Shown in pieces: positions 1 through 12,167 of a stretch of DNA of 12,167 nt. The DNA is from a virus (Duplodnaviria; Heunggongvirae; Uroviricota; Caudoviricetes), in the IMG/VR virus record IMGVR_UViG_2617270997_000007, positions 1 to 12,167 of that record. One strand, 5' to 3'. The position numbers and the translations under genes are program-made. The notes beneath the pieces are model-generated. The model did no database searches and had not been told where the DNA came from. It worked only from the letters and a program-made list of their open reading frames with translations. How positions within the stretch are numbered: position 1 is the first letter of the stretch; the number at the start of each line of letters is the position of its first letter.

Positions 1-31
1 GGTAAATCTTTAAATTCCATCGTCAACCTCA

Positions 32-184
32 TCAGTCGGAGTTTCTTGCTAACCAGCGACGCGCGCCAGCTTCGGTTTTAAACGTTTTGCTTTTGGTATA
101 TGTCATGGCGGTGAATGTGCCGTCCTGGTTGGGGAACACACCACATACCAGAGATTCGCTGTTGCCAAGATCGATAGTATCCAT
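32..184 (-). CDS. Small hypothetical protein (50 aa) downstream of the repressor gene, at the position lambda uses for rex-type accessory genes
   Basis: The track ORF 32..289 begins with TTG and has no Shine-Dalgarno. The in-frame ATG at 184 is preceded on the - strand by GAGG with about 6 nt spacing, giving MDTIDLGNSESLVCGVFPNQDGTF... The longer TTG form cannot be excluded. Confidence 0.35.
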   Translation of the reverse strand: MDTIDLGNSESLVCGVFPNQDGTFTAMTYTKSKTFKTEAGARRWLARNSD

Positions 185-373
185 GCTGACCTCATTACCC
201 CTTAACGCCGGGTAGCGGAACTGTTTGCTGAGAACACCGTGCGGTGTCTTGATGGGTGGTAATTTAGTTTTATCATGAATGTTGGTCAAGCATTTTTAAT
301 GAGAAAACTCAATATTTAATGCAAAATAAAGCCAATACATTGAAATGTAAGGCTTTAAAATTTGTGAAGGGGG

Positions 374-781
374 TTACTGATGTTTGTTACGTTTGCGAGC
401 TTCTAGTAGCTCGGTGAATAGGCGATTAAAATTCTCAACGCGGGCACGGAGTTCGCTGATTTGTGCTTGCTGCTCTGATTTTGGAAGTGCGCGATACAAT
501 CGCAACATCTCCAACTCATCTTCCGATAAGTCTAAGGCGCTGTTGAGTGCTACTGGTGGATCTGGTGTTTTATCCTCGTCACCAAACAGTATCCAAGTTG
601 GTGAACATTGCAATACCTCAGCCAGGCGATGCAAATTTTGCCCGCGCGGGGCTGTATGGTCGCTTTCCCATAGTGAAATTGATGAGCCAGATACGCCAGC
701 GGCTTTGCTTAAATCGTTTTGACTTAAACCAACCTGTTTGCGTCTTTCTCTAATTCGTTGACCTAAAGTTTTCTCGTTCAT
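374..781 (-). CDS. dicA: HTH (XRE-family) prophage repressor, DicA-like, 135 aa, no peptidase S24 domain
   Basis: Complete ORF, MNEKTLGQRIRERRKQVGLSQNDLSKAAG... with the motif LQCSPTWILFGDEDK that I recall from E. coli DicA (also 135 aa). Divergent from a Cro-like gene. Too short to carry a LexA-like autocleavage domain. Confidence 0.8.
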   Translation of the reverse strand: MNEKTLGQRIRERRKQVGLSQNDLSKAAGVSGSSISLWESDHTAPRGQNLHRLAEVLQCSPTWILFGDEDKTPDPPVALNSALDLSEDELEMLRLYRALPKSEQQAQISELRARVENFNRLFTELLEARKRNKHQ

Positions 782-858
782 ATTTAGATATCTTAATAAC
801 CCTTGACTTGAGATTCCTTGAATGATTACTATTGAGAAAACTCAACTTTGGAGGGGTG
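782..858. promoter_or_regulatory. Divergent promoter/operator region between the repressor and Cro-like genes
   Basis: 77-bp intergenic spacer between divergent start codons. TTGACT at 803-808, an 18-bp spacer, then TACTAT at 827-832 could drive the Cro-like gene. GGAGGGG at 850-856 is its ribosome-binding site. Operator half-sites were not resolved by eye. Confidence 0.45.
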
Positions 859-1086
859 ATGTTTAAATCAGACGTAATTAATTTTTATGGGACGAAAGCC
901 AAAGTAGCGAAAGCTGCTGGTGTTGATCCATCTGCTGTTTCTCAATGGGGGGAACTGGTTCCTGAAGGTCGCGCGATGCGCCTGCAAGAGGCATCCGGCG
1001 GGGAACTTCAGTACGACCCCAAAGTTTATGACGAATATCGTAAGGCAAAGCGGGCGGGGCGGTTGAACAATGAAAATCACCCCTGA
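859..1086 (+). CDS. dicC: Cro/DicC-like small DNA-binding protein (75 aa)
   Basis: ATG 859 preceded by GGAGGGG; the track ORF starts further upstream at a TTG (832). Small basic protein divergent from the DicA-like repressor, the classic cro position. Sequence MFKSDVINFYGTKAKVAKAAGVDPSAVSQWGELVPEGRAMRLQEASGGELQYDPKVY... The symbol is from memory of DicC and is not verified. Confidence 0.55.
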   Translation: MFKSDVINFYGTKAKVAKAAGVDPSAVSQWGELVPEGRAMRLQEASGGELQYDPKVYDEYRKAKRAGRLNNENHP

Positions 1087-1621
1087 ACAGGTTTGTGAGG
1101 CTCTGGATGCCTGGGTATGTCGACCAGGAATGACACAGGAGCAAGCGACGATATTAATCACGGAAGCATTCTGGGCTCTGAAAGAACGCCCGAACATCGA
1201 TGTTCAACGCGTCACGTTTAATGATGGCGAGGTTGATCAACGGGCGCTGGGCGTTAACCGGGTGAAGATATTCGAACGCTGGAAAGCTATCGACACCAGG
1301 GATAAGCGGAAAAAATTCACGGCGCTGATTCCGGCAATTATGGAGGCTATCCGAATTAGTGATTTCAGGTTGTATCGTGAGATCAGTGATGGAAAAAGCA
1401 TTACGTACATGATCGCCGGATTAAACAAAGAATATGGCGATGTGGTGGAGTCCGGGCTGCTTTTTGCGGATCCAGCTGTTGTGGAACGTGAGACTGACGA
1501 GCTTATAGAAAAAGCTATTGCTTTCAAGCATGCGTATCGTCAGCAATATCAATATTACTTTGCAGATAAACAAATGTCTGCCAGGGGTTTGTATGAGTAT
1601 CGATGCACTACGATGGGCTAA
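1070..1621 (+). CDS. YdaT-like / CII-position early regulatory protein (183 aa)
   Basis: Complete ORF immediately after the Cro-like gene, overlapping its end by 17 nt. Lambda cII and Rac ydaT occupy this position. The family assignment rests on position and memory, not on a search. Confidence 0.45.
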   Translation: MKITPEQVCEALDAWVCRPGMTQEQATILITEAFWALKERPNIDVQRVTFNDGEVDQRALGVNRVKIFERWKAIDTRDKRKKFTALIPAIMEAIRISDFRLYREISDGKSITYMIAGLNKEYGDVVESGLLFADPAVVERETDELIEKAIAFKHAYRQQYQYYFADKQMSARGLYEYRCTTMG

Positions 1622-2633
1622 AAAGGTGAAAACCGGCAGTTCATCCAGTAAGTCTGTATTGACCTGGCTTGCTGATATGTGCGGTGCCGATTTGTGTGCA
1701 TACCCGTCTGTATCTGCACTGGCAGAAGTAACGGAACTAAACAAAAAGACTGTGCAGGACAGCTTACGACACCTGATGGAGATTGGGTTAATTGTTGATA
1801 CCGGTGAGAGAAAAGGCAGAACAAAGCAAATTGTGGTGTACCGACTTATCGGTGTAGAAGAAAGTGTTGCCGAGCCTGAATACACCCAAAAACGGGAGTC
1901 TTTAAAGGTGGGTAAAATTGGTGCTGTTAATAAAAACAGTACCGAAAATGGTTATGTTTCAGCACAAAACAGACCCAAAAACGGAACTCTTAGCTGCATG
2001 GAAAATAACCAAAGACACCCAAATTTTCCATCAAAGACACCCAAAAACGGATCACGGAACCCAAAGGAACCCAAAGATCTAAACCCCACACATAACGCAC
2101 GCGAGAGTGCTCCGACCAGTGAGCAGGAAGTTTTGTCGTTACAGGCAGCACCCCTTGTATTCCTGGATGGCCTGAGCGAACCCATCGGAAAATTACCGAT
2201 GACCGATAGCTGGTATCCGTCACGGGATTTTCGACGACGGGCTGCGTTGTGGGGGATGGCTTTGCCGGAGACAGAATTTACACCTGCTGAACTTGCCGCC
2301 TTCCGGGACTACTGGGCAGCGGAGGGGAAAGTGTTTACGCAGATTCAGTGGGAGCAGAAATTCGCCCGTCACGTAAATCACGTCAGGGCGCAGGTTAAAC
2401 CAGTCAGCAAGGGGGTAAACCATGCAGCAGCACCAGGTGGCACCGCATCACGGGCAGTTCAGGAAATTCGGGCAGCACGTGAGCAGTGGGAACGTGAAAA
2501 CGGATTTATCAGCGACGGAAACGGTCTGGAAGCTGTGGGAACTCATGGGGGAGGTTTATTCGAACCGCTGGACCCAGAAGAACGGGGCCGCACCTTCGAA
2601 GCTCTGGATTGCACAGATTGGCGCGATGACTGA
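1593..2633 (+). CDS. Phage replication initiation protein (O-like): N-terminal HTH/winged-helix domain, low-complexity linker, C-terminal domain
   Basis: ATG 1593 (MSIDALRWAKK...) chosen over the longer track start at 1518. N-terminus has an HTH-like segment (SVSALAEVTELNKKTVQDSLRHLMEIGLI). The linker is encoded by iteron-like DNA repeats. It lies immediately upstream of a lambda-P-like gene. Confidence 0.6.
   Translation: MSIDALRWAKKVKTGSSSSKSVLTWLADMCGADLCAYPSVSALAEVTELNKKTVQDSLRHLMEIGLIVDTGERKGRTKQIVVYRLIGVEESVAEPEYTQKRESLKVGKIGAVNKNSTENGYVSAQNRPKNGTLSCMENNQRHPNFPSKTPKNGSRNPKEPKDLNPTHNARESAPTSEQEVLSLQAAPLVFLDGLSEPIGKLPMTDSWYPSRDFRRRAALWGMALPETEFTPAELAAFRDYWAAEGKVFTQIQWEQKFARHVNHVRAQVKPVSKGVNHAAAPGGTASRAVQEIRAAREQWERENGFISDGNGLEAVGTHGGGLFEPLDPEERGRTFEALDCTDWRDD
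1966..2078. repeat. Iteron-like direct repeats with an adjacent AT-rich tract inside the O-like gene (candidate replication origin)
   Basis: The 13-mer acccaaaaacgga occurs at 1973-1985 and 2039-2051; caaagacacccaaa at 2010-2023 and 2032-2045; ggaacccaaa in tandem at 2056-2065 and 2066-2075. An AT-rich stretch lies just upstream (1921-1972). Confidence 0.4.
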
Positions 2634-3087
2634 GCAGCAAATCCGACAGGTCTGCCGCCAGTGCATGGACCGCTGCCGGGCGGGTGAAACATGGCCTCCG
2701 GACCTGGCTGAGTTTGTGGCGCTGATTTCAGAAAGCGGGGCCAATCCATTTGGCCTGACGGTGGATGCTGTGATGGAGGAGTACCGCCGCTGGCGTGATG
2801 AGTCCTGGCGATATGACGGAAGCGACAAATATCCGTGGCCTCAGCCTGTGCTGTACCACATCTGCCTCGAAATGCGTACCAGAGGGATTGAGCGCCAGAT
2901 GACGCAGGGTGAGTTAAAACGACTTGCGGAACGGCAACTGACGAAATGGGCAAAGCATGTTGGTAACGGGATGAGTGTTCCGCCAGTGCGACGACAACTG
3001 GAAGGGGCGAAACACCCGCAAGGGCCAACGCCAATTGAACGGCTGAAACAGGAATACGAACGCCGGAAGGCAGCTGGTTTTATTTGA
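2422..3087 (+). CDS. Replication protein P-like (DnaB helicase loader), 221 aa
   Basis: C-terminal two-thirds aligns by eye with lambda P as I remember it: PPDLAEFVALISE to PSPGQFVAWCREE, and YDGSDKYPWPQPVLYHIC...GELKRLAERQL to YPDAESYPWKSNAHYWLV...AELRRKAADEL. ATG 2422 has a strong AGGGGG site 7 nt upstream. Alternative starts are 2545 and 2626 (ATGACTGA overlapping the O-like stop). Confidence 0.7.
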   Translation: MQQHQVAPHHGQFRKFGQHVSSGNVKTDLSATETVWKLWELMGEVYSNRWTQKNGAAPSKLWIAQIGAMTEQQIRQVCRQCMDRCRAGETWPPDLAEFVALISESGANPFGLTVDAVMEEYRRWRDESWRYDGSDKYPWPQPVLYHICLEMRTRGIERQMTQGELKRLAERQLTKWAKHVGNGMSVPPVRRQLEGAKHPQGPTPIERLKQEYERRKAAGFI

Positions 3088-3120
3088 ATCTGAGAAACGA
3101 TTTTGTCGGAGGAAATTTTA

Positions 3121-3891
3121 ATGGAAACCGTATTTGACGCACTGAAAGCAATGGGAAAAGCCACATCGGTAGAACTGGCCGCGCGACTTGATATCAGTCG
3201 TGAAGAGGTTCTCAACGAGCTGTGGGAACTCAAAAGAAATGACGTCGTTGATAAAACTGGTCACACCTGGTTTCTGGCTGGCGAAGGTGAATCCCGGGTA
3301 ACCGAAGAGCGGCCAGTAAAATCTGAAGCACAGGATATGCTGACCGGAGAGGTCGAACAAAAAGTTACCGCAGACATGATGATTGAGTTTATCGGTCAGG
3401 ATGGTGCTAAAACGTGTGAGGAACTGGCGGGTAAGTTCGGCGTCAGTACTCGCAAGGTTGCCTCCACGCTGGCGGTGGTAACCGCAATGGGGCGGCTGGC
3501 ACGCGTTAATCAGAACGGTAAATTTCGTTACTGCATGCCGGGCGATAATTTACCAGCAGAGCCGAAAGCCGCGCTGGTAACGGAAAGTGATGGTAAGGCC
3601 TTTCCTCAGCCAGCAGGTGCTGCGTTACCAGTCCGGGAAGCCGCAACACAGGAAGAAATTAAAACAGAAACTGTGGCGGACATTGTGCAGCCGTTGCCAT
3701 CGTTTACCGAAACGCAAGCAGATGAGCTGATTTTTCCGTCCCTTCGCAGGGCAAACCTGGCGCTGCGCAGGGCGAAAAGTGATGTTCAGAAGTGGGAGCG
3801 AGTCTGCGCCGCGCTGCGGGAGCTGAACAAGCACCGGGATATTGTTCGACAGATTACTGATTCTTCCCGCCGTGTTGTATCGGAAAAGTGA
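3121..3891 (+). CDS. Hypothetical protein with two winged-helix-like segments (256 aa)
   Basis: ATG 3121 with GGAGG 8 nt upstream; the track ORF starts at TTG 3103. Two HTH-like stretches: [26 protein letters not shown] and [31 protein letters not shown]. First gene of a coupled operon. Confidence 0.6.
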
Positions 3892-3906
3892 TTGCCGGAG
3901 GCGCTT

Positions 3907-4299
3907 ATGGCAAAAGTATTTACACCAGAAGAGCGGGAAGAAGTGAAGGCGCGCATTGTGGAATTCGTGCGCCTGAGCGGACGAGAAACTTTTCGACAAC
4001 TGGCAGATAAAACGGGTGTCAGTAAGACCGCTATTCGTCGTTTATCTGGTGCGCTTGCGGCCAGTGGTGATGTCTGGCTCTCTGGTTGCGGGGTATTTCC
4101 ATCAGAGCAGGCGTATCGCGTATGGCGTAAGACACCGGAGAAGGCTGCTGACCCGACACTGATTCGAAAGTTACCTGACGGAGAAATACGTCGTTACAAC
4201 AGACGGCAGAACATAATTTTTCGTGAGTGCCGCCAGAGCGAAGTTATGCAGCGTGTGCTGGCGTTCTATCGGGGAAACTTTCAGGAGGTGATGGAGTGA
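3907..4299 (+). CDS. Hypothetical protein with an HTH-like segment (130 aa)
   Basis: ATG 3907 with GGAGG 5 nt upstream; the track ORF starts at TTG 3892. Contains FRQLADKTGVSKTAIRRL. Its stop TGA 4297-4299 overlaps the next gene's GTG start. Confidence 0.55.
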   Translation: MAKVFTPEEREEVKARIVEFVRLSGRETFRQLADKTGVSKTAIRRLSGALAASGDVWLSGCGVFPSEQAYRVWRKTPEKAADPTLIRKLPDGEIRRYNRRQNIIFRECRQSEVMQRVLAFYRGNFQEVME

Positions 4300-4592
4300 G
4301 GGTCAGAGTTTATATTGCCGGTCCAATGACGGGATATGAAAATTTCAACCGTGAGGCGTTTCACAAGGCGGAAGAGGAACTGAAACGGGAAGGGCATACC
4401 GTCTTAAACCCGGCAGTACTTCCGGACGGGCTGACACAGCCGCACTACATGGATATTTGCATGGCAATGATTCGTTGTGTGGATGCGATTTACATGCTGA
4501 ATGGCTGGCAGCGGTCAGCGGGCGCTAAGGCAGAGCTGGCACTGGCGGAGAAACTGGGGCATGCAGTGATTTATCAGGAGGTGGCTCAATGA
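4296..4592 (+). CDS. DUF4406 / nucleoside 2-deoxyribosyltransferase-like small protein (98 aa)
   Basis: GTG 4296 with AGGAGG 7 nt upstream and a GTGA start/stop overlap. Motif VYIAGPMTGYENFN, then a conserved acidic region, as in the deoxyribosyltransferase/Rcl-like fold. Assignment is from motif memory. Confidence 0.55.
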   Translation: MRVRVYIAGPMTGYENFNREAFHKAEEELKREGHTVLNPAVLPDGLTQPHYMDICMAMIRCVDAIYMLNGWQRSAGAKAELALAEKLGHAVIYQEVAQ

Positions 4593-5056
4593 GAGAGGTT
4601 AACTATGAGGCGCTTCGTGAGGCAGCACAAAACTATCAGTCGACGCTGGCGTGGTATCAGGCTATCCCGGACAGCCCAAATGCTGAACGGGATTGTGATG
4701 CGGCTCTTGCTGCATTTAAGCGTCACATCCGTCATCGGGAAGCGGATATTATCGCTGATTTGCTGGATGGACTGGAAGAAGCAAAATCACAACTCAAAGA
4801 GCAGCGTGAGTATTACGAAGGCGTTATCTCTGATGGGAGCAAGCGTATTGCTGAACTGGAAGCGCGGGAAGTTCAATTACCGACTCGCTACGACCTTCGA
4901 TATGGACACCCGATAAATGCAGATGAGCGACATGTCATGATACCTAAAGAAAATGGCAGTTGGCTTTACCTGATTGACCTAGAACACGCATTACGCGTCT
5001 CTGGCATTCGCATCAAAGGAGAGGAGCATGGAAATAAAACCCAGAGGATGAGTTAA
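4589..5056 (+). CDS. Hypothetical phage protein with a predicted coiled-coil region (155 aa)
   Basis: ATG 4589 overlaps the upstream stop (ATGA), with GGAGG upstream. No recognisable catalytic motif. Confidence 0.6.
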   Translation: MREVNYEALREAAQNYQSTLAWYQAIPDSPNAERDCDAALAAFKRHIRHREADIIADLLDGLEEAKSQLKEQREYYEGVISDGSKRIAELEAREVQLPTRYDLRYGHPINADERHVMIPKENGSWLYLIDLEHALRVSGIRIKGEEHGNKTQRMS

Positions 5057-5086
5057 GCAATATCGTTTTATTTCCGGTAAAAGAGG

Positions 5087-5385
5087 ATGACCCTCGTAAT
5101 CAGGTTAATTTTCTTTATGAGCCATCGGAAAGACCATATTGTCATCACGCCTCTGTCCGGGTTGACGAAAAAGAGCGTCAGGTCCGCTGTAAAATCTGCG
5201 GTGCAGTTGTGGAGCCATTTGACTGGATGCTCTCTGTGGCGAAAAGAGAAACCAGACTGGCAGATGATGTAAGGCACTTGCGCCAGGAGGAGCGGGAAAG
5301 GCGAAAAAATATAGAAAAGCTAATTCAGATTGAGCGTAACGCGAAAGCGCGGATACGCAGGGCGACAAAATCCAGAACTGAATAA
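5087..5385 (+). pseudogene. Zinc-ribbon/coiled-coil ORF with a disrupted start: open frame 5038-5385 has no ATG/GTG/TTG before 5209. Possible frameshift at the T-run 5109-5116 or non-canonical initiation
   Basis: Frame-1 translation is protein-like over about 115 codons: ...NQVNFLYEPSERPYCHHASVRVDEKERQVRCKICGAVVEPFDWMLSVAKRETRLADDVRHLRQEERERRKNIEKLIQIERNAKARIRRATKSRTE*. It fills an otherwise empty 420-bp gap in a tightly packed operon. The only upstream ATG (5087) is in another frame. Confidence 0.3.
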
Positions 5386-5454
5386 TTAAATTTAGCTCTG
5401 TTAAAAATTTAATCCTTAACCGGAGGGATTTCTGCACCCTCAGAACATCAGGAG

Positions 5455-5472
5455 GCCGCCCGAAAGGGCGGT
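5455..5472 (+). promoter_or_regulatory. GC-rich hairpin with GAAA loop between the Shine-Dalgarno AGGAGG (5450-5455) and the ATG at 5479
   Basis: Stem ccgccc (5456-5461), loop gaaa, stem gggcgg (5466-5471), plus a possible G-U closing pair 5455/5472. No U-tract follows, so it is not a typical terminator. Folding would bring the SD from 23 nt to about 7 nt from the start codon. Confidence 0.35.
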
Positions 5473-5478
5473 AGTTAA

Positions 5479-5661
5479 ATGCGAAAGTTTAAAATAATTA
5501 TTGAAACGGGAATAGCCGGTGGAGATTTCGAGGATGAATTCGAAGTGGATGATGATGCGACGCCTGATGAAATACATGACGAAGCAAAAGATATTTTCTT
5601 TAACTACTGCAATTACTCATATCACGAAATAAAAGACGAAGAGGAAGAGCAAAATGGCTGA
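5479..5661 (+). CDS. Small, highly acidic protein (60 aa)
   Basis: MRKFKIIIETGIAGGDFEDEFEVDDDATPDEIHDEAKDIFFNYCNYSYHEIKDEEEEQNG: about 40% Asp/Glu. Complete ORF in the coupled operon. Confidence 0.55.
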   Translation: MRKFKIIIETGIAGGDFEDEFEVDDDATPDEIHDEAKDIFFNYCNYSYHEIKDEEEEQNG

Positions 5662-5830
5662 TTTTGGTTCAACTAAATACAACGTCAGTTTTGAAGCATG
5701 GCATGAACTGTTAATGGACTATGCAGAGTTACGTGGTGGCAGTGCTGCTGATGCTGAAGCATGGCGTGATGATTATGAAGCAGGAAAAACTCCGGTCGAA
5801 GCATATTGTGATGAGTGGGGCGATGAATGA
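5654..5830 (+). CDS. Small acidic protein (58 aa), not in the supplied ORF track
   Basis: ATG 5654 with GAGGAAG 6 nt upstream, overlapping the previous stop. Translation MADFGSTKYNVSFEAWHELLMDYAELRGGSAADAEAWRDDYEAGKTPVEAYCDEWGDE*. Its stop TGA 5828-5830 overlaps the next ATG at 5827 (ATGA). Confidence 0.45.
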   Translation: MADFGSTKYNVSFEAWHELLMDYAELRGGSAADAEAWRDDYEAGKTPVEAYCDEWGDE

Positions 5831-6342
5831 GCGAGATTAATTATCAGGAAGGGCATGAAACGGCAGGGCAGGCAAAACCAGTTGCATGGCGATATCGCTA
5901 CGTGAAAAAAGACGTTACAGACTTTCAGGGGAAGCCGTGGGCTGGTGACTGGAAATATGTACCGACAAAAGAGGATTGTAACGACAGGCCGAACTATGAA
6001 ATTCAGGCCTTATTCATCGGCCCGCCAGTCCCGGTGACATCAGAAGGACTGGTTAAAGCCGTGCGCTTTTATGAACAGGTAAAGCGTGAGAATCCGCCAG
6101 TCGAAACAGGAGCATGGAAGGATGCTGTTGACTGGGTGCTCAGAGAGGCCTGCTGCGCTGCCATTCTGGGTAAAGCCGACAATCCACCAGCATCCGGCAA
6201 TCAGGTTAGCGAATTAACAATGTGGGTTAAACGACTGGTCAGTCAACTGAAAAAAGCTCAGCCGGACTGCAAATTACCGGAGAAGGCGATGGATTACCTG
6301 AAACGAAATGGACTGATAAGCGTGGAGGATGTTTTACGATGA
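5827..6342 (+). CDS. Hypothetical phage protein (171 aa), last gene of the coupled operon
   Basis: Complete ORF with ATGA coupling to the upstream small ORF. No recognisable motif. Confidence 0.6.
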   Translation: MSEINYQEGHETAGQAKPVAWRYRYVKKDVTDFQGKPWAGDWKYVPTKEDCNDRPNYEIQALFIGPPVPVTSEGLVKAVRFYEQVKRENPPVETGAWKDAVDWVLREACCAAILGKADNPPASGNQVSELTMWVKRLVSQLKKAQPDCKLPEKAMDYLKRNGLISVEDVLR

Positions 6343-6462
6343 ATATTTAGACTAAAGAGTTTGTAACGCTATGTAAGTGATTTTTTCTGGTTTAGATATT
6401 TATATGTTCGGCCAAATTGAGGTGTGTTTAAATGTTATTGCACATTGATTGTAGGGGGAATA

Positions 6463-6642
6463 ATGAAAAACGCATTGCAGTTTTTGTTTGTTGCGTTCTG
6501 GTTGTTCGCATCATGTATGCCCATCATCTTCACAGCAAGGTATATGGAAAAAATTGATGTTTTGATATTAATGTTTGGACATATAAATGCCCTTTTTTTA
6601 GGGGTGTTCATGGCGGTCATGTGCATTGAATACTGGCGGTAA
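6463..6642 (+). CDS. Small hydrophobic membrane protein (59 aa, two predicted TM helices) in an AT-rich moron
   Basis: ATG 6463 with GGGGGA just upstream; the track ORF starts at GTG 6424. Sequence MKNALQFLFVAFWLFASCMPIIFTARYMEKIDVLILMFGHINALFLGVFMAVMCIEYWR. The surrounding region 6343-6660 is visibly AT-rich compared with its neighbours. Confidence 0.45.
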   Translation: MKNALQFLFVAFWLFASCMPIIFTARYMEKIDVLILMFGHINALFLGVFMAVMCIEYWR

Positions 6643-6784
6643 ATACAGCGAACGCCATTGGTTTAGTTGGATATTTACTGTGCCGGACAAAAACGGTTTG
6701 CGGGGAAATCTTAGTTAAGTAGAATAACTGCGGGTGCTTGAGGCTATCTGTCTCAGGCATGAACACCAAAAGGCAGATAGAGAA

Positions 6785-6851
6785 AAGCCCCAGTTAACAT
6801 TACGCGTCCTGCAAGACGCTTAACATTAATCTGAGGCCATATCTATGCGAC
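6785..6851 (-). ncRNA. sok: Sok-like antisense RNA of the hok locus (approximate position)
   Basis: Expected by analogy with hok/sok loci. A candidate - strand promoter has TTGACC (complement of 6882-6887), an 18-bp spacer and TAATCT (complement of 6858-6863), directing transcription leftward across the hok leader. The 3' end is not defined. Confidence 0.25.
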
Positions 6852-6904
6852 ACATAGAGATTAGCCTCTTACGGACCGAAAGGTCAAGGAGAAGCAGGCT
6901 ATGA
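6845..6904 (+). CDS. Mok-like short upstream ORF (19 codons) coupled to hok
   Basis: ATG 6845, translation MRHIEISLLRTERSRRSRL*, with stop TGA 6902-6904 overlapping the hok ATG (ATGA). Too short to judge on composition alone. Confidence 0.25.
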   Translation: MRHIEISLLRTERSRRSRL

Positions 6905-7056
6905 AGCAGCAAAAGGCGATGTTAATCGCCCTGATCGTCATCTGTTTAACCGTCATAGTGACGGCACTGGTAACGAGGAAAGACCTCTGCGAGGTACGAA
7001 TCCGAACCGGCCAGACGGAGGTCGCTGTCTTCACAGCTTACGAACCTGAGGAGTAA
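6901..7056 (+). CDS. hokD: Hok/Gef-family type I toxin (51 aa), HokD/RelF-like
   Basis: Translation MKQQKAMLIALIVICLTVIVTALVTRKDLCEVRIRTGQTEVAVFTAYEPEE*, which matches Hok-family toxins and, as far as I recall, E. coli HokD closely. AAGGAG lies 9 nt upstream. Absent from the ORF track because it is under 60 aa. Confidence 0.85.
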   Translation: MKQQKAMLIALIVICLTVIVTALVTRKDLCEVRIRTGQTEVAVFTAYEPEE

Positions 7057-7126
7057 GAGACCCGGCGAGGGAGAAATCCCTCGCCACCTCTGATGTGGCA
7101 GGCATTCTCAACGCACCCGCACTTAA

Positions 7127-7150
7127 CCCGCTTCGGCGGGTTTTTGTTTT
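7127..7150 (+). terminator. Rho-independent terminator at the 3' end of the hok transcript
   Basis: Stem cccgc / loop ttcg / stem gcggg followed by tttttgttttt. A separate perfect 9-bp hairpin (ggcgaggga-gaaa-tccctcgcc, 7064-7085) lies just after the hok stop and may be the 3' fold-back element of hok mRNA. Confidence 0.75.
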
Positions 7151-7272
7151 TATTTTCAACGCATTTGAAGTTCTGGACGGTGCCGGAATAGAATCAAAAA
7201 TACTTAAGTAGCGCGCAGGGATAAGAGGGATGGTCCCTTAAAGGGGAGAGCTAATTATCCGGAAGGATTCTG

Positions 7273-7524
7273 ATGATGAACATCGAAGAACTGCGTAAAA
7301 TTTTTTGTGAAGATGGCCTCTATGCTGTGTGCGTTGAAAATGGAAATATTGTTAGTCATTACCGCATTGTGTGTTTGCAAAAAAATGGGGCTGCGTTAAT
7401 TAATTTTGTGGATGCCCGAGTGACGGACGGATTTATCTTGCGCGACGGTGAGTTTGTCACTTCATTACAGGTATTGAAAGAGATCGGAATAAAAGCTGGC
7501 TTTTCTGCTTTTTCAGAAGAATAA
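7273..7524 (+). CDS. rem: Rem-like small protein (83 aa)
   Basis: Complete ORF with GGAAGGA 5 nt upstream of ATGATG. Same size and position (between hok and the DUF968 gene) as rem in the K-12 Qin prophage. Symbol is from synteny and size, not sequence recall. Confidence 0.4.
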   Translation: MMNIEELRKIFCEDGLYAVCVENGNIVSHYRIVCLQKNGAALINFVDARVTDGFILRDGEFVTSLQVLKEIGIKAGFSAFSEE

Positions 7525-7590
7525 ACTCATCTACAATCTTGCGCGGGGCTGAACTCCCGCTGAGTAACACCGTGCCACCGGAGAAAACCG

Positions 7591-7869
7591 ATGGCACGCA
7601 ACGCAAAATATTACAAACATGATAATTCGACCGTTCTTGCCCACACGCACGAGCGGTATTCTCACGCATTTAAGTCAGACTGGTACCAGCATCCCCCATG
7701 CACTGAAGAACAGGCCGAATGGCTCATTCAGTGTTACCGCAGGCGCGGATGCGAGGTTAAAAAAGCCCTTAGCCTCGACTACCGTCACTGGATAATCTCC
7801 GTCAGGCTTCCTTACTCCGAACGCCCACCGCGTCTGTCCCGCACATTCCAGCAACGCATCTGGAGGTAA
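7591..7869 (+). CDS. Hypothetical phage protein (92 aa)
   Basis: Complete ORF with GGAG 8 nt upstream. Its stop lies 1 nt before the GTG start of the DUF968 gene. Confidence 0.55.
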   Translation: MARNAKYYKHDNSTVLAHTHERYSHAFKSDWYQHPPCTEEQAEWLIQCYRRRGCEVKKALSLDYRHWIISVRLPYSERPPRLSRTFQQRIWR

Positions 7870-7870
7870 C

Positions 7871-8917
7871 GTGCGGGTATTACTTCGACCTGTTCTGGTA
7901 CCGGAACTCGGGCTGGTGATCGTTAAGCCGGGCCGTGAATCCATGCCGGTATTCCACAATACCCGGGTACTGGTGGAGCCGGAACCGAAAAGCATGCGTA
8001 ATCTGCCGTCCGGGGTCGTTCCTGCCGTTCGCCAGCCGCTGGCGGAGGATAAATCATTACTGCCATTTTTCAGCGACGAACGAGTGATTCGTGCTGCTGG
8101 TGGCGCTGGCGCATTGTCTGACTGGTTACTGCGCCATGTTAAATCCTGCCAGTGGCCACACGGCGATTATCACCACAGTGAAACCGTCATTCACCGTTAT
8201 GGTACCGGCGCAATGGTGTTGTGCTGGCACTGCGACAACCAGCTGCGCGACCAGACCTCCGAATCACTCGGGCAACTTGCTCACCAAAACCTGTCTGCAT
8301 GGATGATTGACGTCATACGCCATGCAATGAATGGCTCGCAGGAACGGGAATTATCGCTGGCTGAATTATCCTGGTGGGCGGTCCGCAATCAGGTGGCGGA
8401 CGCGCTACCGGAAGCGGTATTACGTCGTTCGCTGGGGTTGCGTGCGGAAAAAATCCGCTCAATGTACCGTGAAAGCGACATCGTACCGGGAGAGCAGACC
8501 GCCACCAGCATACTGAAGCAGCGCACAAAAAATCTTGCGCCGCTGCCTCACGCCCACCAGCAAAACCCGCCACAGGAAGAGACGGTGGTCAGCATTGCCG
8601 TTGATCCTGAGTCTCCGGAATCTTTCATGAAACGACCTAAACGTCGCCGCTGGGTTAACGAGAAATACACACGCTGGGTGAAGACACAGCCGTGTGCGTG
8701 TTGTGGTAAGCCAGCCGACGATCCCCATCACCTGATTGGTCATGGTCAGGGCGGAATGGGGACAAAATCTCACGATATTTTCACGCTACCGCTGTGTCGG
8801 GAGCATCACAACGAGCTTCATGCGGATCCTCTGGCGTTCGAAGAAAAGCATGGTTCTCAGGTTGATTTAATTTTTCGTTTTCTTGATCACGCCTTTGCAA
8901 CTGGCGTGCTTGGGTAA
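7871..8917 (+). CDS. ydfU: DUF968-family protein (YdfU-like, 348 aa) with a C-terminal HNH-like zinc-finger motif
   Basis: GTG 7871 with GGAGG upstream. C-terminus CACCGKPADDPHHLIGHGQGGMGTKSHDIFTLPLCREHHNELH has the CxxC...HH...H...C..HH..H pattern of HNH nucleases. Size and position match Qin YdfU from memory. Confidence 0.6.
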   Translation: MRVLLRPVLVPELGLVIVKPGRESMPVFHNTRVLVEPEPKSMRNLPSGVVPAVRQPLAEDKSLLPFFSDERVIRAAGGAGALSDWLLRHVKSCQWPHGDYHHSETVIHRYGTGAMVLCWHCDNQLRDQTSESLGQLAHQNLSAWMIDVIRHAMNGSQERELSLAELSWWAVRNQVADALPEAVLRRSLGLRAEKIRSMYRESDIVPGEQTATSILKQRTKNLAPLPHAHQQNPPQEETVVSIAVDPESPESFMKRPKRRRWVNEKYTRWVKTQPCACCGKPADDPHHLIGHGQGGMGTKSHDIFTLPLCREHHNELHADPLAFEEKHGSQVDLIFRFLDHAFATGVLG

Positions 8918-8929
8918 AAGAGGTGACTG

Positions 8930-9304
8930 ATGCTCATAGATTTGGTTTTACCTTACCCGCCGACGGTGAACACTTACTGGCGACGCCGTGGCAGCACATA
9001 TTTTATCTCGGAGGAGGGAAAGCGTTATCGCCGGGCTGTGGCGCTTATTGTTTGCCAGCAGCGGCTGAAATTAAGCCTGTCCGGAAGGCTGGCGATAAAG
9101 GTGATTGCAGAGCCACCGGATAAGCGTCGTCGCGACCTGGACAATATCCTGAAAGCACCGCTGGATGCGCTGACGCATGCGGGAGTGTTAATGGACGATG
9201 AGCAGTTTGATGAAATCAATATCGTTCGTGGTCAGCCAGTATCTGGTGGACGTCTGGGGGTGAAGATTTACCCCATAATGCATGAAGAGCAGGTCAAAAA
9301 ATGA
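8930..9304 (+). CDS. rusA: RusA crossover-junction endodeoxyribonuclease (Holliday junction resolvase), 124 aa
   Basis: Motifs PYPPTVNTYWRRRG, RRRDLDNILKAPLDALT and MDDEQ line up with the RusA signature (WPPSNNRYY, RRRDLDN, DD.Q). AGAGGTGA upstream. Confidence 0.85.
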   Translation: MLIDLVLPYPPTVNTYWRRRGSTYFISEEGKRYRRAVALIVCQQRLKLSLSGRLAIKVIAEPPDKRRRDLDNILKAPLDALTHAGVLMDDEQFDEINIVRGQPVSGGRLGVKIYPIMHEEQVKK

Positions 9305-10122
9305 AACTGGAAGATTTACCGAAATACTACTCCCCAAAATCCCCTGGCCTGACCGATGCATCGGCCTCAACGTCAAAAGATGCGCTGAGTATCACTGATG
9401 TGATGGCCGCGCAGGGCATGACACAGAATCGGGCTGAGATGGGTTTTTCTGCGTTCCTGGGGAAAATGGGCATCAGTATGAATGACAGGGTGCGGGCAAC
9501 AGAATTACTGGCAGATTATGCACTCAGTCGGTGCGATCGTGTGGCGGCGTTGAGAAAACTTCCGGCAGAAATAAAACCGGTAGTGATGCGCATTATGGCT
9601 TCGTACGCTTTTGAGGATTATGCCCGCAGCGCAGCGAGTAAAAAGCAGTGCCCTTGTTGCTATGGGGAAAAATTTATTGAAAGCATAGTTTTTACAAACA
9701 AGGTCCAGTATCCGGATGGTAAGCCGCCGGTATGGGCAAAGTGTACGAAAGGTGTGTATCCGTCTTACTGGGAAGAATGGAAAAAAGTCAGGGAGGTGGT
9801 AAAAGTTGCCTGTCCGGAGTGTGGCGGAAAGGGTGAGGTTTCCACCGCCTGTAAGGATTGCCGTGGGCGTGGTGTCGCCATTCACCGTGAAGAGTCGGTA
9901 AAACGTGGTATGCCTGTTATCAGAGACTGCCAGCGTTGTGGTGGTCGTGGCTATGAAAGACTACCATCAACGGAGGCATTTAATGCTATATGCGAGGTGA
10001 CAAACCAGATAACACGCGCGTCATGGGAAAAAACAGTTAAGAAATTCTATGATGCGCTGGTGACCCGGTTTGATATTGAAGAAGCATGGGCTGAGCGGCA
10101 GTTAAAAAAGGTAACTAGGTAA
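9301..10122 (+). CDS. Late-gene antitermination protein Q-like (273 aa) with CxxC zinc fingers
   Basis: ATG 9301 overlaps the rusA stop (ATGA). Cys-rich C-terminal region CPECGGKGEVSTACKDCRGRG...CQRCGGRGY. Sits directly upstream of a lambda-type PR', the canonical Q position. Confidence 0.6.
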   Translation: MKLEDLPKYYSPKSPGLTDASASTSKDALSITDVMAAQGMTQNRAEMGFSAFLGKMGISMNDRVRATELLADYALSRCDRVAALRKLPAEIKPVVMRIMASYAFEDYARSAASKKQCPCCYGEKFIESIVFTNKVQYPDGKPPVWAKCTKGVYPSYWEEWKKVREVVKVACPECGGKGEVSTACKDCRGRGVAIHREESVKRGMPVIRDCQRCGGRGYERLPSTEAFNAICEVTNQITRASWEKTVKKFYDALVTRFDIEEAWAERQLKKVTR

Positions 10123-10128
10123 CAAGGT

Positions 10129-10156
10129 TGATTTTTCCGGAATCTGTGGTAAATTC
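10129..10156 (+). promoter_or_regulatory. Late promoter PR' (lambda-type), with the downstream pause-region motif
   Basis: -35 TTGATT (10129-10134), 16-bp spacer containing TGg, -10 TAAATT (10151-10156), then cgtcataacgATGGG. Lambda PR' as I recall it is TTGACT ... TAAATT tgactcaacgATGGG, so the -10 and the aacgATGGG block are shared. Confidence 0.6.
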
Positions 10157-10204
10157 GTCATAACGATGGGCCTTTTATGCCTGACGTTAGAAGAGTTTCT
10201 ACAA

Positions 10205-10229
10205 CCCGCCGCCGAGCGGGTTTTTTATT
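10205..10229 (+). terminator. Rho-independent terminator about 50-65 nt downstream of PR' (tR'-like)
   Basis: Stem cccgc (10206-10210), loop cgccga, stem gcggg (10217-10221), then tttttt. Confidence 0.6.
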
Positions 10230-10264
10230 GCGGAATTAATTACGGACCGTTATTATTCTGCTCC

Positions 10265-10340
10265 CGGCCCTTTAGCTCAGTGGTGAGAGCGAGCGACTCA
10301 TAATCGCCAGGTCGCTGGTTCAAATCCAGCAAGGGCCACC
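10265..10340 (+). tRNA. ileZ: tRNA-Ile2 (anticodon CAU, lysidine type; formally also readable as Met), 76 nt with encoded CCA
   Basis: Cloverleaf folded by hand: acceptor ggccctt/aagggcc, D-stem gctc/gagc, anticodon loop ctCATaa, T-arm gctgg-ttcaaat-ccagc, discriminator A, CCA. Near-identical to E. coli ileX as recalled. Confidence 0.85.
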
Positions 10341-10347
10341 ATCACAT

Positions 10348-10424
10348 ACCGCCATTAGCTCATCAGGAAAGAGCGCCAGCCTTCGAAGCTGGTTGCGCGG
10401 AGTTCGGGTCCCCGAAGGCGGTCC
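10348..10424 (+). tRNA. argN: tRNA-Arg (anticodon UCG), 77 nt, with non-canonical features
   Basis: Anticodon arm ccagc-ctTCGaa-gctgg is perfect and D-stem gctc/gagc is good. The acceptor stem has one A-A mismatch at pair 6, the T-stem has one A-C mismatch, and the T-loop is ttcgggt (G where the conserved A58 is expected). CCA is encoded. Confidence 0.6.
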
Positions 10425-10437
10425 ATTATCTGTATCC

Positions 10438-10514
10438 TGCGTTGTTAGCTCAGCCGGACAGAGCAATTGCCTTCTAAGCAATCGGTCACTGGTTCGAATC
10501 CAGTACAACGCGCC
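10438..10514 (+). tRNA. argO: tRNA-Arg (anticodon UCU), 77 nt with encoded CCA
   Basis: Clean cloverleaf: acceptor gcgttgt/acaacgc, D-stem gctc/gagc, anticodon arm attgc-ctTCTaa-gcaat, T-arm actgg-ttcgaat-ccagt, discriminator G, CCA. Confidence 0.85.
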
Positions 10515-10529
10515 ACACTTATTTTCCCT

Positions 10530-10552
10530 GGCTCGCTTTTGCGGGCTTTTTT
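10530..10552 (+). terminator. Rho-independent terminator after the tRNA cluster
   Basis: Stem ggctcgc (with one G-U pair), loop tttt, stem gcgggc, followed by a 7-nt T-run. Confidence 0.6.
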
Positions 10553-10557
10553 TTAAA

Positions 10558-10770
10558 TGTCTCACAATTCAGGCGGTTGACTGTTGTCTGGTTTGCGGGG
10601 AGTTTGTTAAAAGAAACTGGCATGGTGAATCCCCCTGTGCGGAGGGGCAATCAGCGAGTAGGTATATGGGATAATCGCGGATTCAGGTGCTGGTACTGAA
10701 TTCACCGGGAGGCACCCGGCACCATGCAATGGCACATAGCGCCACTCTCCAGCCCCTCTCCGGAGGGGCT
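10558..10770 (+). repeat. Structured repeat module A: promoter-like -35, two conserved GC hairpins and a terminal terminator hairpin (candidate small RNA or leader cassette)
   Basis: Shares ordered blocks with module B: ctcacaattcag; TTGACT (10574-10579); tttgttaaaa; hairpin cccct-gtgcgg-agggg (10629-10644); hairpin ccggg-aggca-cccgg (10702-10716) followed by ATG; terminator gcccctc-tccg-gaggggc (10749-10766) plus tttt. Confidence 0.6.
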
Positions 10771-10964
10771 TTTCTGTGCCGGATACATCACAGTTTCTGG
10801 AACCTTAGGTACTACAGTATCAGTCAGGGTGCTATATTTTCAGATGTGATGAAAGCCTGTCAGCAGGCAGGGCGTATCGGAAATGACCCAGTAGAGAAAA
10901 CGTTGACTCAGATACCGGTGCTGAGTTACCGGGAAACCGGCATCACATGACCGCTATCCTTCCA

Positions 10965-10991
10965 GGCCCATCCGCTCCGGTGGGCCTTTTT
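10965..10991 (+). terminator. Rho-independent terminator between the two repeat modules
   Basis: Stem ggccca (10965-10970), 10-nt loop, stem tgggcc (10981-10986), then ttttt. It closes a short unit containing a possible 33-codon ORF at 10849-10950, which has no convincing Shine-Dalgarno and is not called. Confidence 0.45.
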
Positions 10992-11028
10992 ACTGCAGAA
11001 AACAGGTTCCCCGTTAAATGCTATGTTG

Positions 11029-11262
11029 CTCACAATTCAGTAAGTTGACAGTTGCCTGTCAGACTGGGCATTTGTTAAAAAAATTTCGCATGGTGAATCC
11101 CCCTGAGCGGAGGGGCGACTGGTGACGGTATAATCTCTGATTATCAAAACGAGAATGACGCGGGTTTAGTGGCACCGGGCTGAACTCACCGGGAGGCACC
11201 CGGCACCATGTGCATGATGATACAGATACGCGGCTTTAGCCCCTCTCCGGAGGGGCTTTCTT
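11029..11262 (+). repeat. Structured repeat module B, paralogous to module A
   Basis: Same blocks in the same order: ctcacaattcag (11029-11040); TTGACA (11045-11050); tttgttaaaa; hairpin ccccctgagcggagggg; a TATAAT at 11129-11134; caccgggaggcacccggcaccATG; terminator gcccctc-tccg-gaggggc (11239-11256) plus T-tract. It has about 20 bp of insertion relative to A. Confidence 0.6.
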
Positions 11263-11267
11263 ATGGA

Positions 11268-11297
11268 CAAAAAAAGCCCGCGCTGGGAGACGCGGGC
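11268..11297 (-). terminator. Minus-strand intrinsic terminator immediately after module B
   Basis: On the + strand an A7 tract (11269-11275) precedes the hairpin gcccgcg-ctgggaga-cgcgggc (11276-11297). Read on the - strand this is hairpin plus U-tract. No convincing - strand gene lies upstream of it. Confidence 0.4.
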
Positions 11298-11490
11298 GGC
11301 AAGGAATAAACAATAAAACGTGAAGTAATATTTCAGCTGGCGAATAATACCCCATAGTAATCACTCTGCGCAACTGCGCGGTCTTTTTCGAATTGCGGGC
11401 TGTAGTCTCCCTTCTGCCATTGTCCTGTAACTTCCGGACTTCAGCCTGCTCCTTATCTGACTCACAACATTATCCCGCCCGGGAGGATTC

Positions 11491-11679
11491 ATGGCATTTA
11501 AACACTATGACGTGGTCAGGGCGGCATCGCCGTCAGACCTTGCGAAACGACTGACACAAAAACTGAAGGAGGGCTGGCAGCCGTTTGGTAGTCCGGTGGC
11601 CATAACCCCTTATACCCTGATGCAGGCGATTGCAGCAGAAGGTGATGTGGTGGTCAGTGGTGCAACTGAGCCGGAGTGA
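11491..11679 (+). CDS. DUF1737-like small protein (62 aa), commonly found just upstream of lambdoid lysis cassettes
   Basis: Complete ORF with GGGAGG 5 nt upstream. Translation [62 protein letters not shown]. Family assignment is from memory of position and size. Confidence 0.55.
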   Translation: MAFKHYDVVRAASPSDLAKRLTQKLKEGWQPFGSPVAITPYTLMQAIAAEGDVVVSGATEPE

Positions 11680-11837
11680 TACTACGTCATCGTACTGGCC
11701 CGGCATTCCAGGCCATAAAAGACGGTCTGGCAGTGGGACTAAATGCACTGACGCTGACGGATATTACCAAAAATGCAACGTATGGCGTTGAGATAGAAAG
11801 TCTGGTGCTGGAGATAAATGCACCGGCATCATCATAA
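11676..11837 (+). CDS. Possible small ORF (54 codons, GTG start) coupled to the DUF1737-like gene; not in the ORF track
   Basis: GTG 11676-11678 overlaps the upstream TGA (GTGA). Translation [53 protein letters not shown]. The upstream ribosome-binding site is weak. Confidence 0.3.
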
Positions 11838-11921
11838 AAAGTGAGCCAGTCAAATGGAAGGTATCGTTAAACTCACCGGTAGTGTCAGTGGGTCGTCTGA
11901 GACGCCTGCATGAGTTATCAG

Positions 11922-11950
11922 AGCCATCAGTACTTAACTGGTGGCTTTTT
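11922..11950 (+). terminator. Rho-independent terminator 28 nt upstream of the holin start
   Basis: Stem gccatcag (11922-11929), loop tacttaa, stem ctggtggc (one G-U pair), followed by ttttttatt. Confidence 0.55.
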
Positions 11951-11977
11951 TATTGTTGTCAGCTTCCGGATAACGGG

Positions 11978-12167
11978 AGACGGGGTATGTACCAGATGGA
12001 AAAAATCACAACAGGTGTGTCATACACCACGTCAGCGGTGGGAACGGGCTACTGGTTCCTGCAGTTGCTGGACAGGGTTTCCCCGTCTCAGTGGGCGGCA
12101 ATAGGCGTGCTGGGGAGTCTGCTGTTTGGGCTGCTGACATATCTGACTAACCTGTATTTCAAAATCA
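11978..12167 (+). CDS. S: Class II holin (phage 21 S21-type pinholin), 3' end cut off by the window
   Basis: Translation [60 protein letters not shown]... resembles S21 as recalled ([63 protein letters not shown]...). Two in-frame starts at codons 1 and 4 (ATG 11978 and 11987). No stop before position 12167. Confidence 0.8.

Follow-up and report, generated by a model that had tools for sequence, protein, structure and literature searches.

The question raised by the locus described here is what a protein of only 98 amino acids, encoded among the early genes of a prophage and retaining part of a familiar enzyme active site, might do to the nucleotides of its host cell. The window, by which we mean the whole stretch of 12,167 nucleotides that was analysed (IMG/VR virus record IMGVR_UViG_2617270997_000007, positions 1 to 12,167), represents the early region of an E. 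coli prophage of the lambdoid (Qin/Rac-like) type, and the gene in question, which belongs to the family DUF4406, lies on its plus strand at 4296-4592, in the early rightward operon of that prophage. On balance we lean towards the view that the product is a minimal retaining N-glycosidase, which would remove the base from a 5'-phosphorylated nucleotide with Glu80 as its nucleophile; this reading comes from conserved residues and their alignment with characterised enzymes.

The gene opens with a GTG codon at 4296 and closes with TGA at 4590-4592, and its protein starts MRVRVYIAGPMTGYENFN. The same 297-nt coding sequence is annotated by RefSeq in E. coli SMS-3-5 as a "DUF4406 domain-containing protein" (WP_001266130.1). 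A longer open reading frame (ORF) from a GTG at 4227 (121 amino acids) was ruled out, homologues and RefSeq beginning at 4296 or two codons later, as was an antisense ORF at 4345-4467, the only support for which is that it forms the complement of a conserved gene. Upstream, the start codon shares bases with the DUF977 stop (GTGA); downstream, the stop codon does so with the ATG of the Ea22-like gene (ATGA). The operon around the gene is tightly packed and probably translationally coupled. The gene and its principal elements are located as follows:

4296..4592, plus strand: DUF4406 coding sequence, 98 amino acids plus stop (ORF, Pfam PF14359 match and the same coding sequence in RefSeq)
4283..4288, plus strand: Shine-Dalgarno sequence AGGAGG, 7 nt before GTG 4296 (read from the sequence)
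4308..4334, plus strand: first β-strand (β1) and the following Gly-rich loop, VYIAGPMTG, residues 5-13 (conservation, alignment and model strand E4-8)
4458..4460, plus strand: codon of Cys55 (TGC), at the position of the triad Asp or Asn of characterised relatives (hidden Markov model (HMM) alignments)
4515..4535, plus strand: S74-A-G76-A-K-A-E80 motif, with the predicted phosphate-binding Ser and Gly and the predicted catalytic Glu nucleophile (conservation and alignment)

The assignment to DUF4406, already made in the initial annotation, holds from end to end: Pfam PF14359 matches the protein with an E-value of 5.7e-38 (129.7 bits against a cut-off of 22) over profile positions 2-91 of 91, and PHROG 355, which is labelled "nucleoside 2-deoxyribosyltransferase", matches at 3e-48. 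The protein is a full-length member of both and does not differ from them. Its other Pfam matches are weak and fall in the related families DUF1937, DUF7768 and Nuc_deoxyrib_tr (PF05014), the last scoring 14.4 bits, under a gathering threshold of 28.8. Judged by sequence, therefore, this is a relative within the nucleoside 2-deoxyribosyltransferase (NDT) superfamily and not a member of PF05014. DUF1937 (PDB 1t1j, P. aeruginosa PA1492) is a separate Pfam family that is itself uncharacterised, and the match to it adds no functional information. Searches with the protein against NCBIfam and against the PADLOC defence models gave no match.

In an AlphaFold2 model built on a 20-sequence alignment (predicted local distance difference test, pLDDT, 90.3; predicted template modelling score, pTM, 0.83), the chain runs strand, helix, strand, helix, strand, helix, strand, giving four strands (E4-8, E35-37, E64-67 and E90-93) and three helices, and it ends after strand 4. 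The modelled fold is the flavodoxin-like α/β arrangement common to NDTs, Rcl and MilB, and Foldseek placed T. brucei NDT first (2.8e-5), with other NDTs, human DNPH1 (the Rcl protein) and MilB also in the top ranks. PDB searches with the single sequence and with the 20-sequence alignment returned spurious matches only, and a diversified profile of 72 sequences was needed to reach NDT, BlsM and MilB; this profile matched T. brucei NDT across the whole domain (E 2.2e-6) and, more weakly, L. mexicana NDT, BlsM, BcmB and MilB. Because these profile matches and the independent Foldseek ranking agree, we consider the assignment of the predicted fold to the NDT superfamily solid, and the deoxyribosyltransferase/Rcl-like fold originally suspected is upheld. 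The description 'mini-enzyme', which came from the same source, is accurate because characterised relatives have 135-170 amino acids and a five-stranded sheet, MilB being five-stranded and dimeric (PMC4081090), against 98 amino acids and four strands here. The characteristic sheet of the superfamily (strand order 2-1-3-4-5), in which C-terminal elements complete the active site of the partner subunit, is not reproduced by the model, from which strand 5 and the C-terminal helix are absent.

Conservation was tabulated over 72 diverse DUF4406 domains, reaching down to approximately 34% identity to the window protein. Across these, G9, F22, S74 and E80 are invariant and Y6 (Y or F), G13, N18, P39, P43, G45, Y51, M58, W71, G76, A77 and A84 are nearly so. 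The motif VYIAGPMTG...NF that first drew attention to the gene occurs exactly as it was written, at residues 5-13 with NF at 16-17. Within it Y6 (codon 4311-4313), the triad Tyr, is Y in 65 of the 72 domains and F in 7, and stands opposite the Tyr in KIYIAGP of T. brucei NDT; in the loop that follows strand 1, G9 is present in all domains and G13 in 70. Towards the C-terminus S74 and E80 are found in 72/72 and G76 in 71/72, and S74-x-G76-x-x-x-E80 aligns with SPGTHVE of MilB, BlsM and BcmB and with DCGTAFE of T. brucei NDT. E80 (codon 4533-4535) thus falls on the Glu of T. brucei NDT, BlsM, BcmB and MilB (E103), which points to it as the catalytic nucleophile and as the catalytic acidic residue whose absence would have spoken against the initial annotation. 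The 'downstream acidic region' mentioned there comes down to this one invariant Glu; the nearby D53, present in 28 of the 72 domains, is not conserved. D53 was also ruled out as the triad Asp, since it lies two residues from the aligned position, which is Cys55.

The nature of the residue six before the Glu is what suggests a phosphorylated substrate. NDTs have an Asp there, which is credited with binding the 5'-hydroxyl, and Rcl carries a Ser. Ser rather than Asp at this position, followed by Gly, is the pattern of the monophosphate N-glycosidases, and in the alignment the window protein follows it. In the structure of MilB with hydroxymethyl-CMP, the phosphate makes contacts with Ser97 and Gly99 and the ribose and base with Asp78, and E103 acts as the nucleophile (PMC4081090). 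The middle member of the triad, an Asp or Asn on the helix preceding strand 3, is where DUF4406 departs from its relatives. HMM alignments set Cys55 against Asp78 of MilB, the Asp of BlsM and Asn53 of T. brucei NDT, so that the Asp or Asn of the triad is missing; the 72 domains have Cys in 47 cases (65%), Asp in 11 (15%), Gly in 5, Thr in 4 and Ala in 3 at this position. The family seems to have exchanged its general-acid residue, Cys for Asp/Asn, while the nucleophile was kept.

Comparison with individual characterised enzymes sharpens these differences. The CMP and hydroxymethyl-CMP N-glycosidases MilB, BlsM and BcmB share Ser-x-Gly-x-x-x-Glu with the window protein, although their sequence-profile similarity to DUF4406 is marginal (E 0.035-0.47); MilB has Asp78 in place of Cys55, and it is a five-stranded, dimeric protein of approximately 170 amino acids that recognises the base through Phe22 and Arg23, against 98 residues and four strands here. 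In DNPH1, a 2'-deoxynucleoside 5'-phosphate N-hydrolase to which there is no direct sequence-profile match, the triad is Y24/D80/E104, E104 being the residue of the covalent intermediate and D80 the proton donor to the leaving base (PMC10603095); the window protein has Cys in place of this D80, and it has no E55/H56 helical element, no shielding loop and no C-terminal extension into the partner subunit. The NDTs of T. brucei, Leishmania and Lactobacillus (PF05014) are the closest relatives by both sequence and structure, with Tyr and Glu aligned, and T. brucei NDT likewise lacks the middle Asp, yet some 40% of their chain (strand 5 and the C-terminal tail) has no counterpart and their Asp is replaced by Ser74. 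DmtZ of Z-genome phages, a dAMP hydrolase and deoxyribose-5-phosphate transferase compared here by its description, is a phage-encoded member of the superfamily that acts on a deoxynucleoside monophosphate, with Tyr6/Asn77/Glu103 and uncharged residues in the 5' pocket (PMC12884076); it resembles the window protein in the non-Asp middle residue and in that pocket, but has a domain of approximately 145 amino acids with five strands, a Trp124 lid contributed by the partner subunit, and a defined dZ pathway, whereas PurZ, DatZ and DpoZ are absent from the context of this prophage.

Taken as a nucleotide N-glycosidase, the protein would be a stand-alone, minimal member of the NDT/DNPH1(Rcl)/MilB superfamily, co-expressed with the replication genes of the phage and acting on a substrate of the nucleoside 5'-monophosphate type. 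The Gly-rich loop after strand 1 would hold the 5'-phosphate together with Ser74 and Gly76, and, with Tyr6 positioning it, Glu80 would attack the sugar at C1'; the base would leave as a (deoxy)ribosyl-5-phosphate-enzyme ester was formed, and water would then hydrolyse this ester. The net outcome would be the loss of the base from one particular (deoxy)nucleotide in the pool of the infected cell. We infer catalysis, the phosphate on the substrate and the biological role in this way, and since Cys55 replaces Asp/Asn and the C-terminal strand and helix are missing, the protein must depart from the characterised relatives in its leaving-group chemistry or in its oligomeric active site.

Other readings of the same residues have to be weighed against a minimal N-glycosidase. 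Many phage annotations would make the protein a true NDT, exchanging bases between deoxynucleosides in a salvage or base-exchange function, and T. brucei NDT is indeed its best match by sequence profile and Foldseek, the name is used by PHROG 355 and by many GenBank phage records, and some phage NDTs do have transferase activity (bioRxiv 10.1101/2025.10.22.683976). We nevertheless hold this to be decidedly unlikely, as these annotations are homology labels and not experiments, and the invariant Ser74 stands where T. brucei NDT has Asp76 and where the monophosphate hydrolases MilB, BlsM and BcmB have Ser. The PF05014 score is below its cut-off, and the model has no C-terminal segment, which in NDTs contributes to binding of the sugar's hydroxyl groups in the adjacent subunit. 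Among phage anti-defence proteins there are several small sponges, and a non-catalytic nucleotide binder, whether a sponge, a sensor or a small regulator that binds another protein, would accommodate both the very small size of the protein and the lack of some canonical active-site elements, the triad Asp among them. Inactive sensor versions also occur in the TIR-DrHyd-SLOG clade (PMC9503650). This too we judge unlikely, because the nucleophile Glu and the preceding Ser and Gly are invariant across the 72 sequences, a pattern typical of retained catalysis, and the Tyr is also kept.

Structural similarity, on the other hand, is the single argument for a glycohydrolase of the TIR-like or DrHyd type, with NAD+ or an ADP-ribose-derived immune messenger such as Thoeris gcADPR as its substrate; the protein would then be an enzyme of counter-defence or host takeover. 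All significant sequence-profile matches are to NDT and CMP-hydrolase proteins and none is to TIR, PADLOC returned no defence match, and the neighbourhoods of DUF4406 contain no Thoeris- or NAD-related gene. According to a systematic survey of viral NAD/ADPr systems, moreover, the DrHyd domains that viruses bring to that network are all of the ARC type, and TIR and DrHyd domains of the NADase type are significantly under-represented in viruses, a mild argument in the same direction (PMC9503650); a glycohydrolase of this type is accordingly improbable in our view. A bolder version of the N-glycosidase reading, and one that we offer as a long shot, is that DUF4406 proteins destroy a modified or signalling nucleotide that host immunity uses as an alarm or weapon; Dam-derived m6-dAMP, another nucleotide messenger or a toxic analogue would be speculative examples of such a target. 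m6-dAMP has been reported as the trigger of the PUA-Cal-HAD defence in E. coli (bioRxiv 10.64898/2026.01.15.699771, a 2026 preprint), and N6-substituted AMPs are reported to inhibit DNPH1 (PMC3834327). The idea was prompted only by the monophosphate motif, by the proximity or adjacency of Dam in some loci and by the DNPH1 inhibitors; were it true, DUF4406 would be a widespread, unrecognised family of anti-defence enzymes with an unusual Tyr-Cys-Glu active site.

Whatever its activity, the gene is very common, already has an annotation and belongs to a known, uncharacterised family. An exhaustive HMMER search returned 12,253 cluster representatives (50% identity) at E ≤ 0.001, and tblastn located the domain in 344 phage genomes with hosts that include Vibrio, Arthrobacter, Mycobacterium, Aeromonas, Pseudomonas and Klebsiella. 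The tblastn alignments in phages mostly end at query residue 74, with query coverage of at least 80% in just 7 of the 344 places, because the low-complexity filter probably masks the Ala-rich S-A-G-A-K-A-E-L-A-L-A segment that holds the predicted catalytic Glu; automated comparisons based on BLAST may therefore routinely miss the active-site motif of the family. Among 5,426 complete E. coli genomes the 297-nt gene is present at 80% identity or more in 1,210 (approximately 22%), in up to four copies per genome and usually directly after DUF977, and 459 genomes contain the 1.3-kb block that surrounds it. About one complete E. coli genome in five thus carries a gene for which we found no study of any family member: "DUF4406" appears in three papers, each time as a passing mention, searches for PF14359, DUF1937, DUF7768 and YtoQ gave no functional study, and searches combining deoxyribosyltransferase with phage, lambdoid or anti-defense led to retron effectors and Z-genome phage enzymes and to nothing on DUF4406. 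We found neither a characterised member nor a solved structure detectable by sequence. For this window our finding adds nothing to the existing annotation, but it is reasonable to aim biochemical work at the whole family; should the protein be an active nucleotide N-glycosidase, it would be among the commonest phage-encoded activities directed at the nucleotide pool and a natural minimal scaffold for its enzyme class, and its substrate could reveal a nucleotide of importance in the conflict between phage and host.

The company kept by the gene was examined in 80 genome loci (from Proteobacteria, Planctomycetota, Actinomycetes, Firmicutes, Chloroflexota and others), the ORFs of which were clustered, and in eight phages inspected individually. 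Homologues across these many bacterial phyla lie almost entirely in the early regions of temperate phages and prophages. Within 5 kb, the 80 loci contain an S24 repressor in 25 cases, Dam in 13, RusA in 12, an integrase in 11, DnaB in 9 and replication protein O in 8. The figure for Dam is a raw count for one BLAST cluster (including loci L051, L052, L053, L056, L071, L077, L030 and L040), three scanned members of which (L040, L053 and L056) match the phage Dam methyltransferase family PF05869. In four of the 80 loci (L052, L056, L071 and L077, from Aeromonas, Cloacimonadales and Actinomycetes), as judged from ORF coordinates, the Dam-cluster ORF starts no more than 80 nt from the end of the DUF4406 ORF, and in phiKO2 and Arthrobacter phage Abidatro a DNA methylase gene lies a few genes upstream of DUF4406. 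No neighbour was obligate among the 80 clustered loci and no recurrent fusion partner emerged from a Pfam and PHROGs scan of 46 longer homologues, which have only idiosyncratic extensions, helix-turn-helix domains and DUF551; in all likelihood the DUF4406 protein acts without a partner. We rejected as evidence the PHROG labels 'MazG-like pyrophosphatase' and 'hydrolase', together with GenBank names such as 'MazG-like protein' and 'deoxycytidylate deaminase'; they sit on a plain, stand-alone DUF4406 protein or, in Orisa01, on a 43-codon coding sequence that spans only the C-terminal end.

The order of genes in the window is a cI-like repressor, a pR-like promoter candidate, cro-like, YdaT-like, and O-like and P replication genes, followed by DUF1627, DUF977, DUF4406 and the Ea22-like gene, and then by several small ORFs, hok/sok, DUF968, RusA, the Q antiterminator gene and three tRNA genes. 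The features that bear on the expression of the DUF4406 gene are these:

374-781, minus strand: cI-like repressor gene
803..832, plus strand: pR-like promoter candidate between the cI-like and cro-like genes (consensus scan, 9/12 positions; a consensus match only)
3892..4299, plus strand: upstream DUF977 gene (helix-turn-helix, 'Ren-like'), the stop of which overlaps the DUF4406 start (Pfam DUF977 2e-40, PHROG 142)
4589..5056, plus strand: downstream Ead/Ea22-like gene, the ATG of which overlaps the DUF4406 stop (Pfam Ead_Ea22 9.9e-12, RefSeq annotation)

The pR-like candidate would drive the array of genes on the same strand that includes DUF4406. When 700-6500 was scanned for terminators, a single weak match, with a 5-bp stem at 3062-3078, was found upstream of the gene, and such matches are fewer in the real stretch than in shuffled sequence.

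Both genes that precede DUF4406 (3103-4299, plus strand) encode helix-turn-helix proteins, DUF1627 with 262 amino acids (3e-98) and DUF977 with 135 amino acids (2e-40), the latter being the usual gene just before DUF4406 in E. coli and bearing the PHROG label 'Ren-like exclusion protein'. DUF1627 has weak PADLOC matches to Csa3 and CARF-associated helix-turn-helix models (E 1.5e-4). On the downstream side, the Ea22-like protein (4589-5056, plus strand) marginally matches the N-terminal domain of MucB/RseB in Pfam (23.5 bits, the cut-off being 22.3), and some RefSeq genomes name this neighbour 'sigma-E factor regulatory protein RseB domain-containing protein'. Further along the plus strand there is a hok/sok type I toxin-antitoxin locus at 6732-7056, where Rfam matches sok at 6732-6903 (106.7 bits) and the hokD ORF spans 6901-7056, in a layout identical to that of the annotated hokD of the SMS-3-5 prophage. 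The Q antiterminator gene occupies 9301-10122 and is followed by tRNA genes for Met(CAT), Arg(TCG) and Arg(TCT) at 10266-10515 (plus strand), past which lie two copies of the small RNA family STnc100, at 10591-10781 and 11059-11268 (136 and 165 bits).
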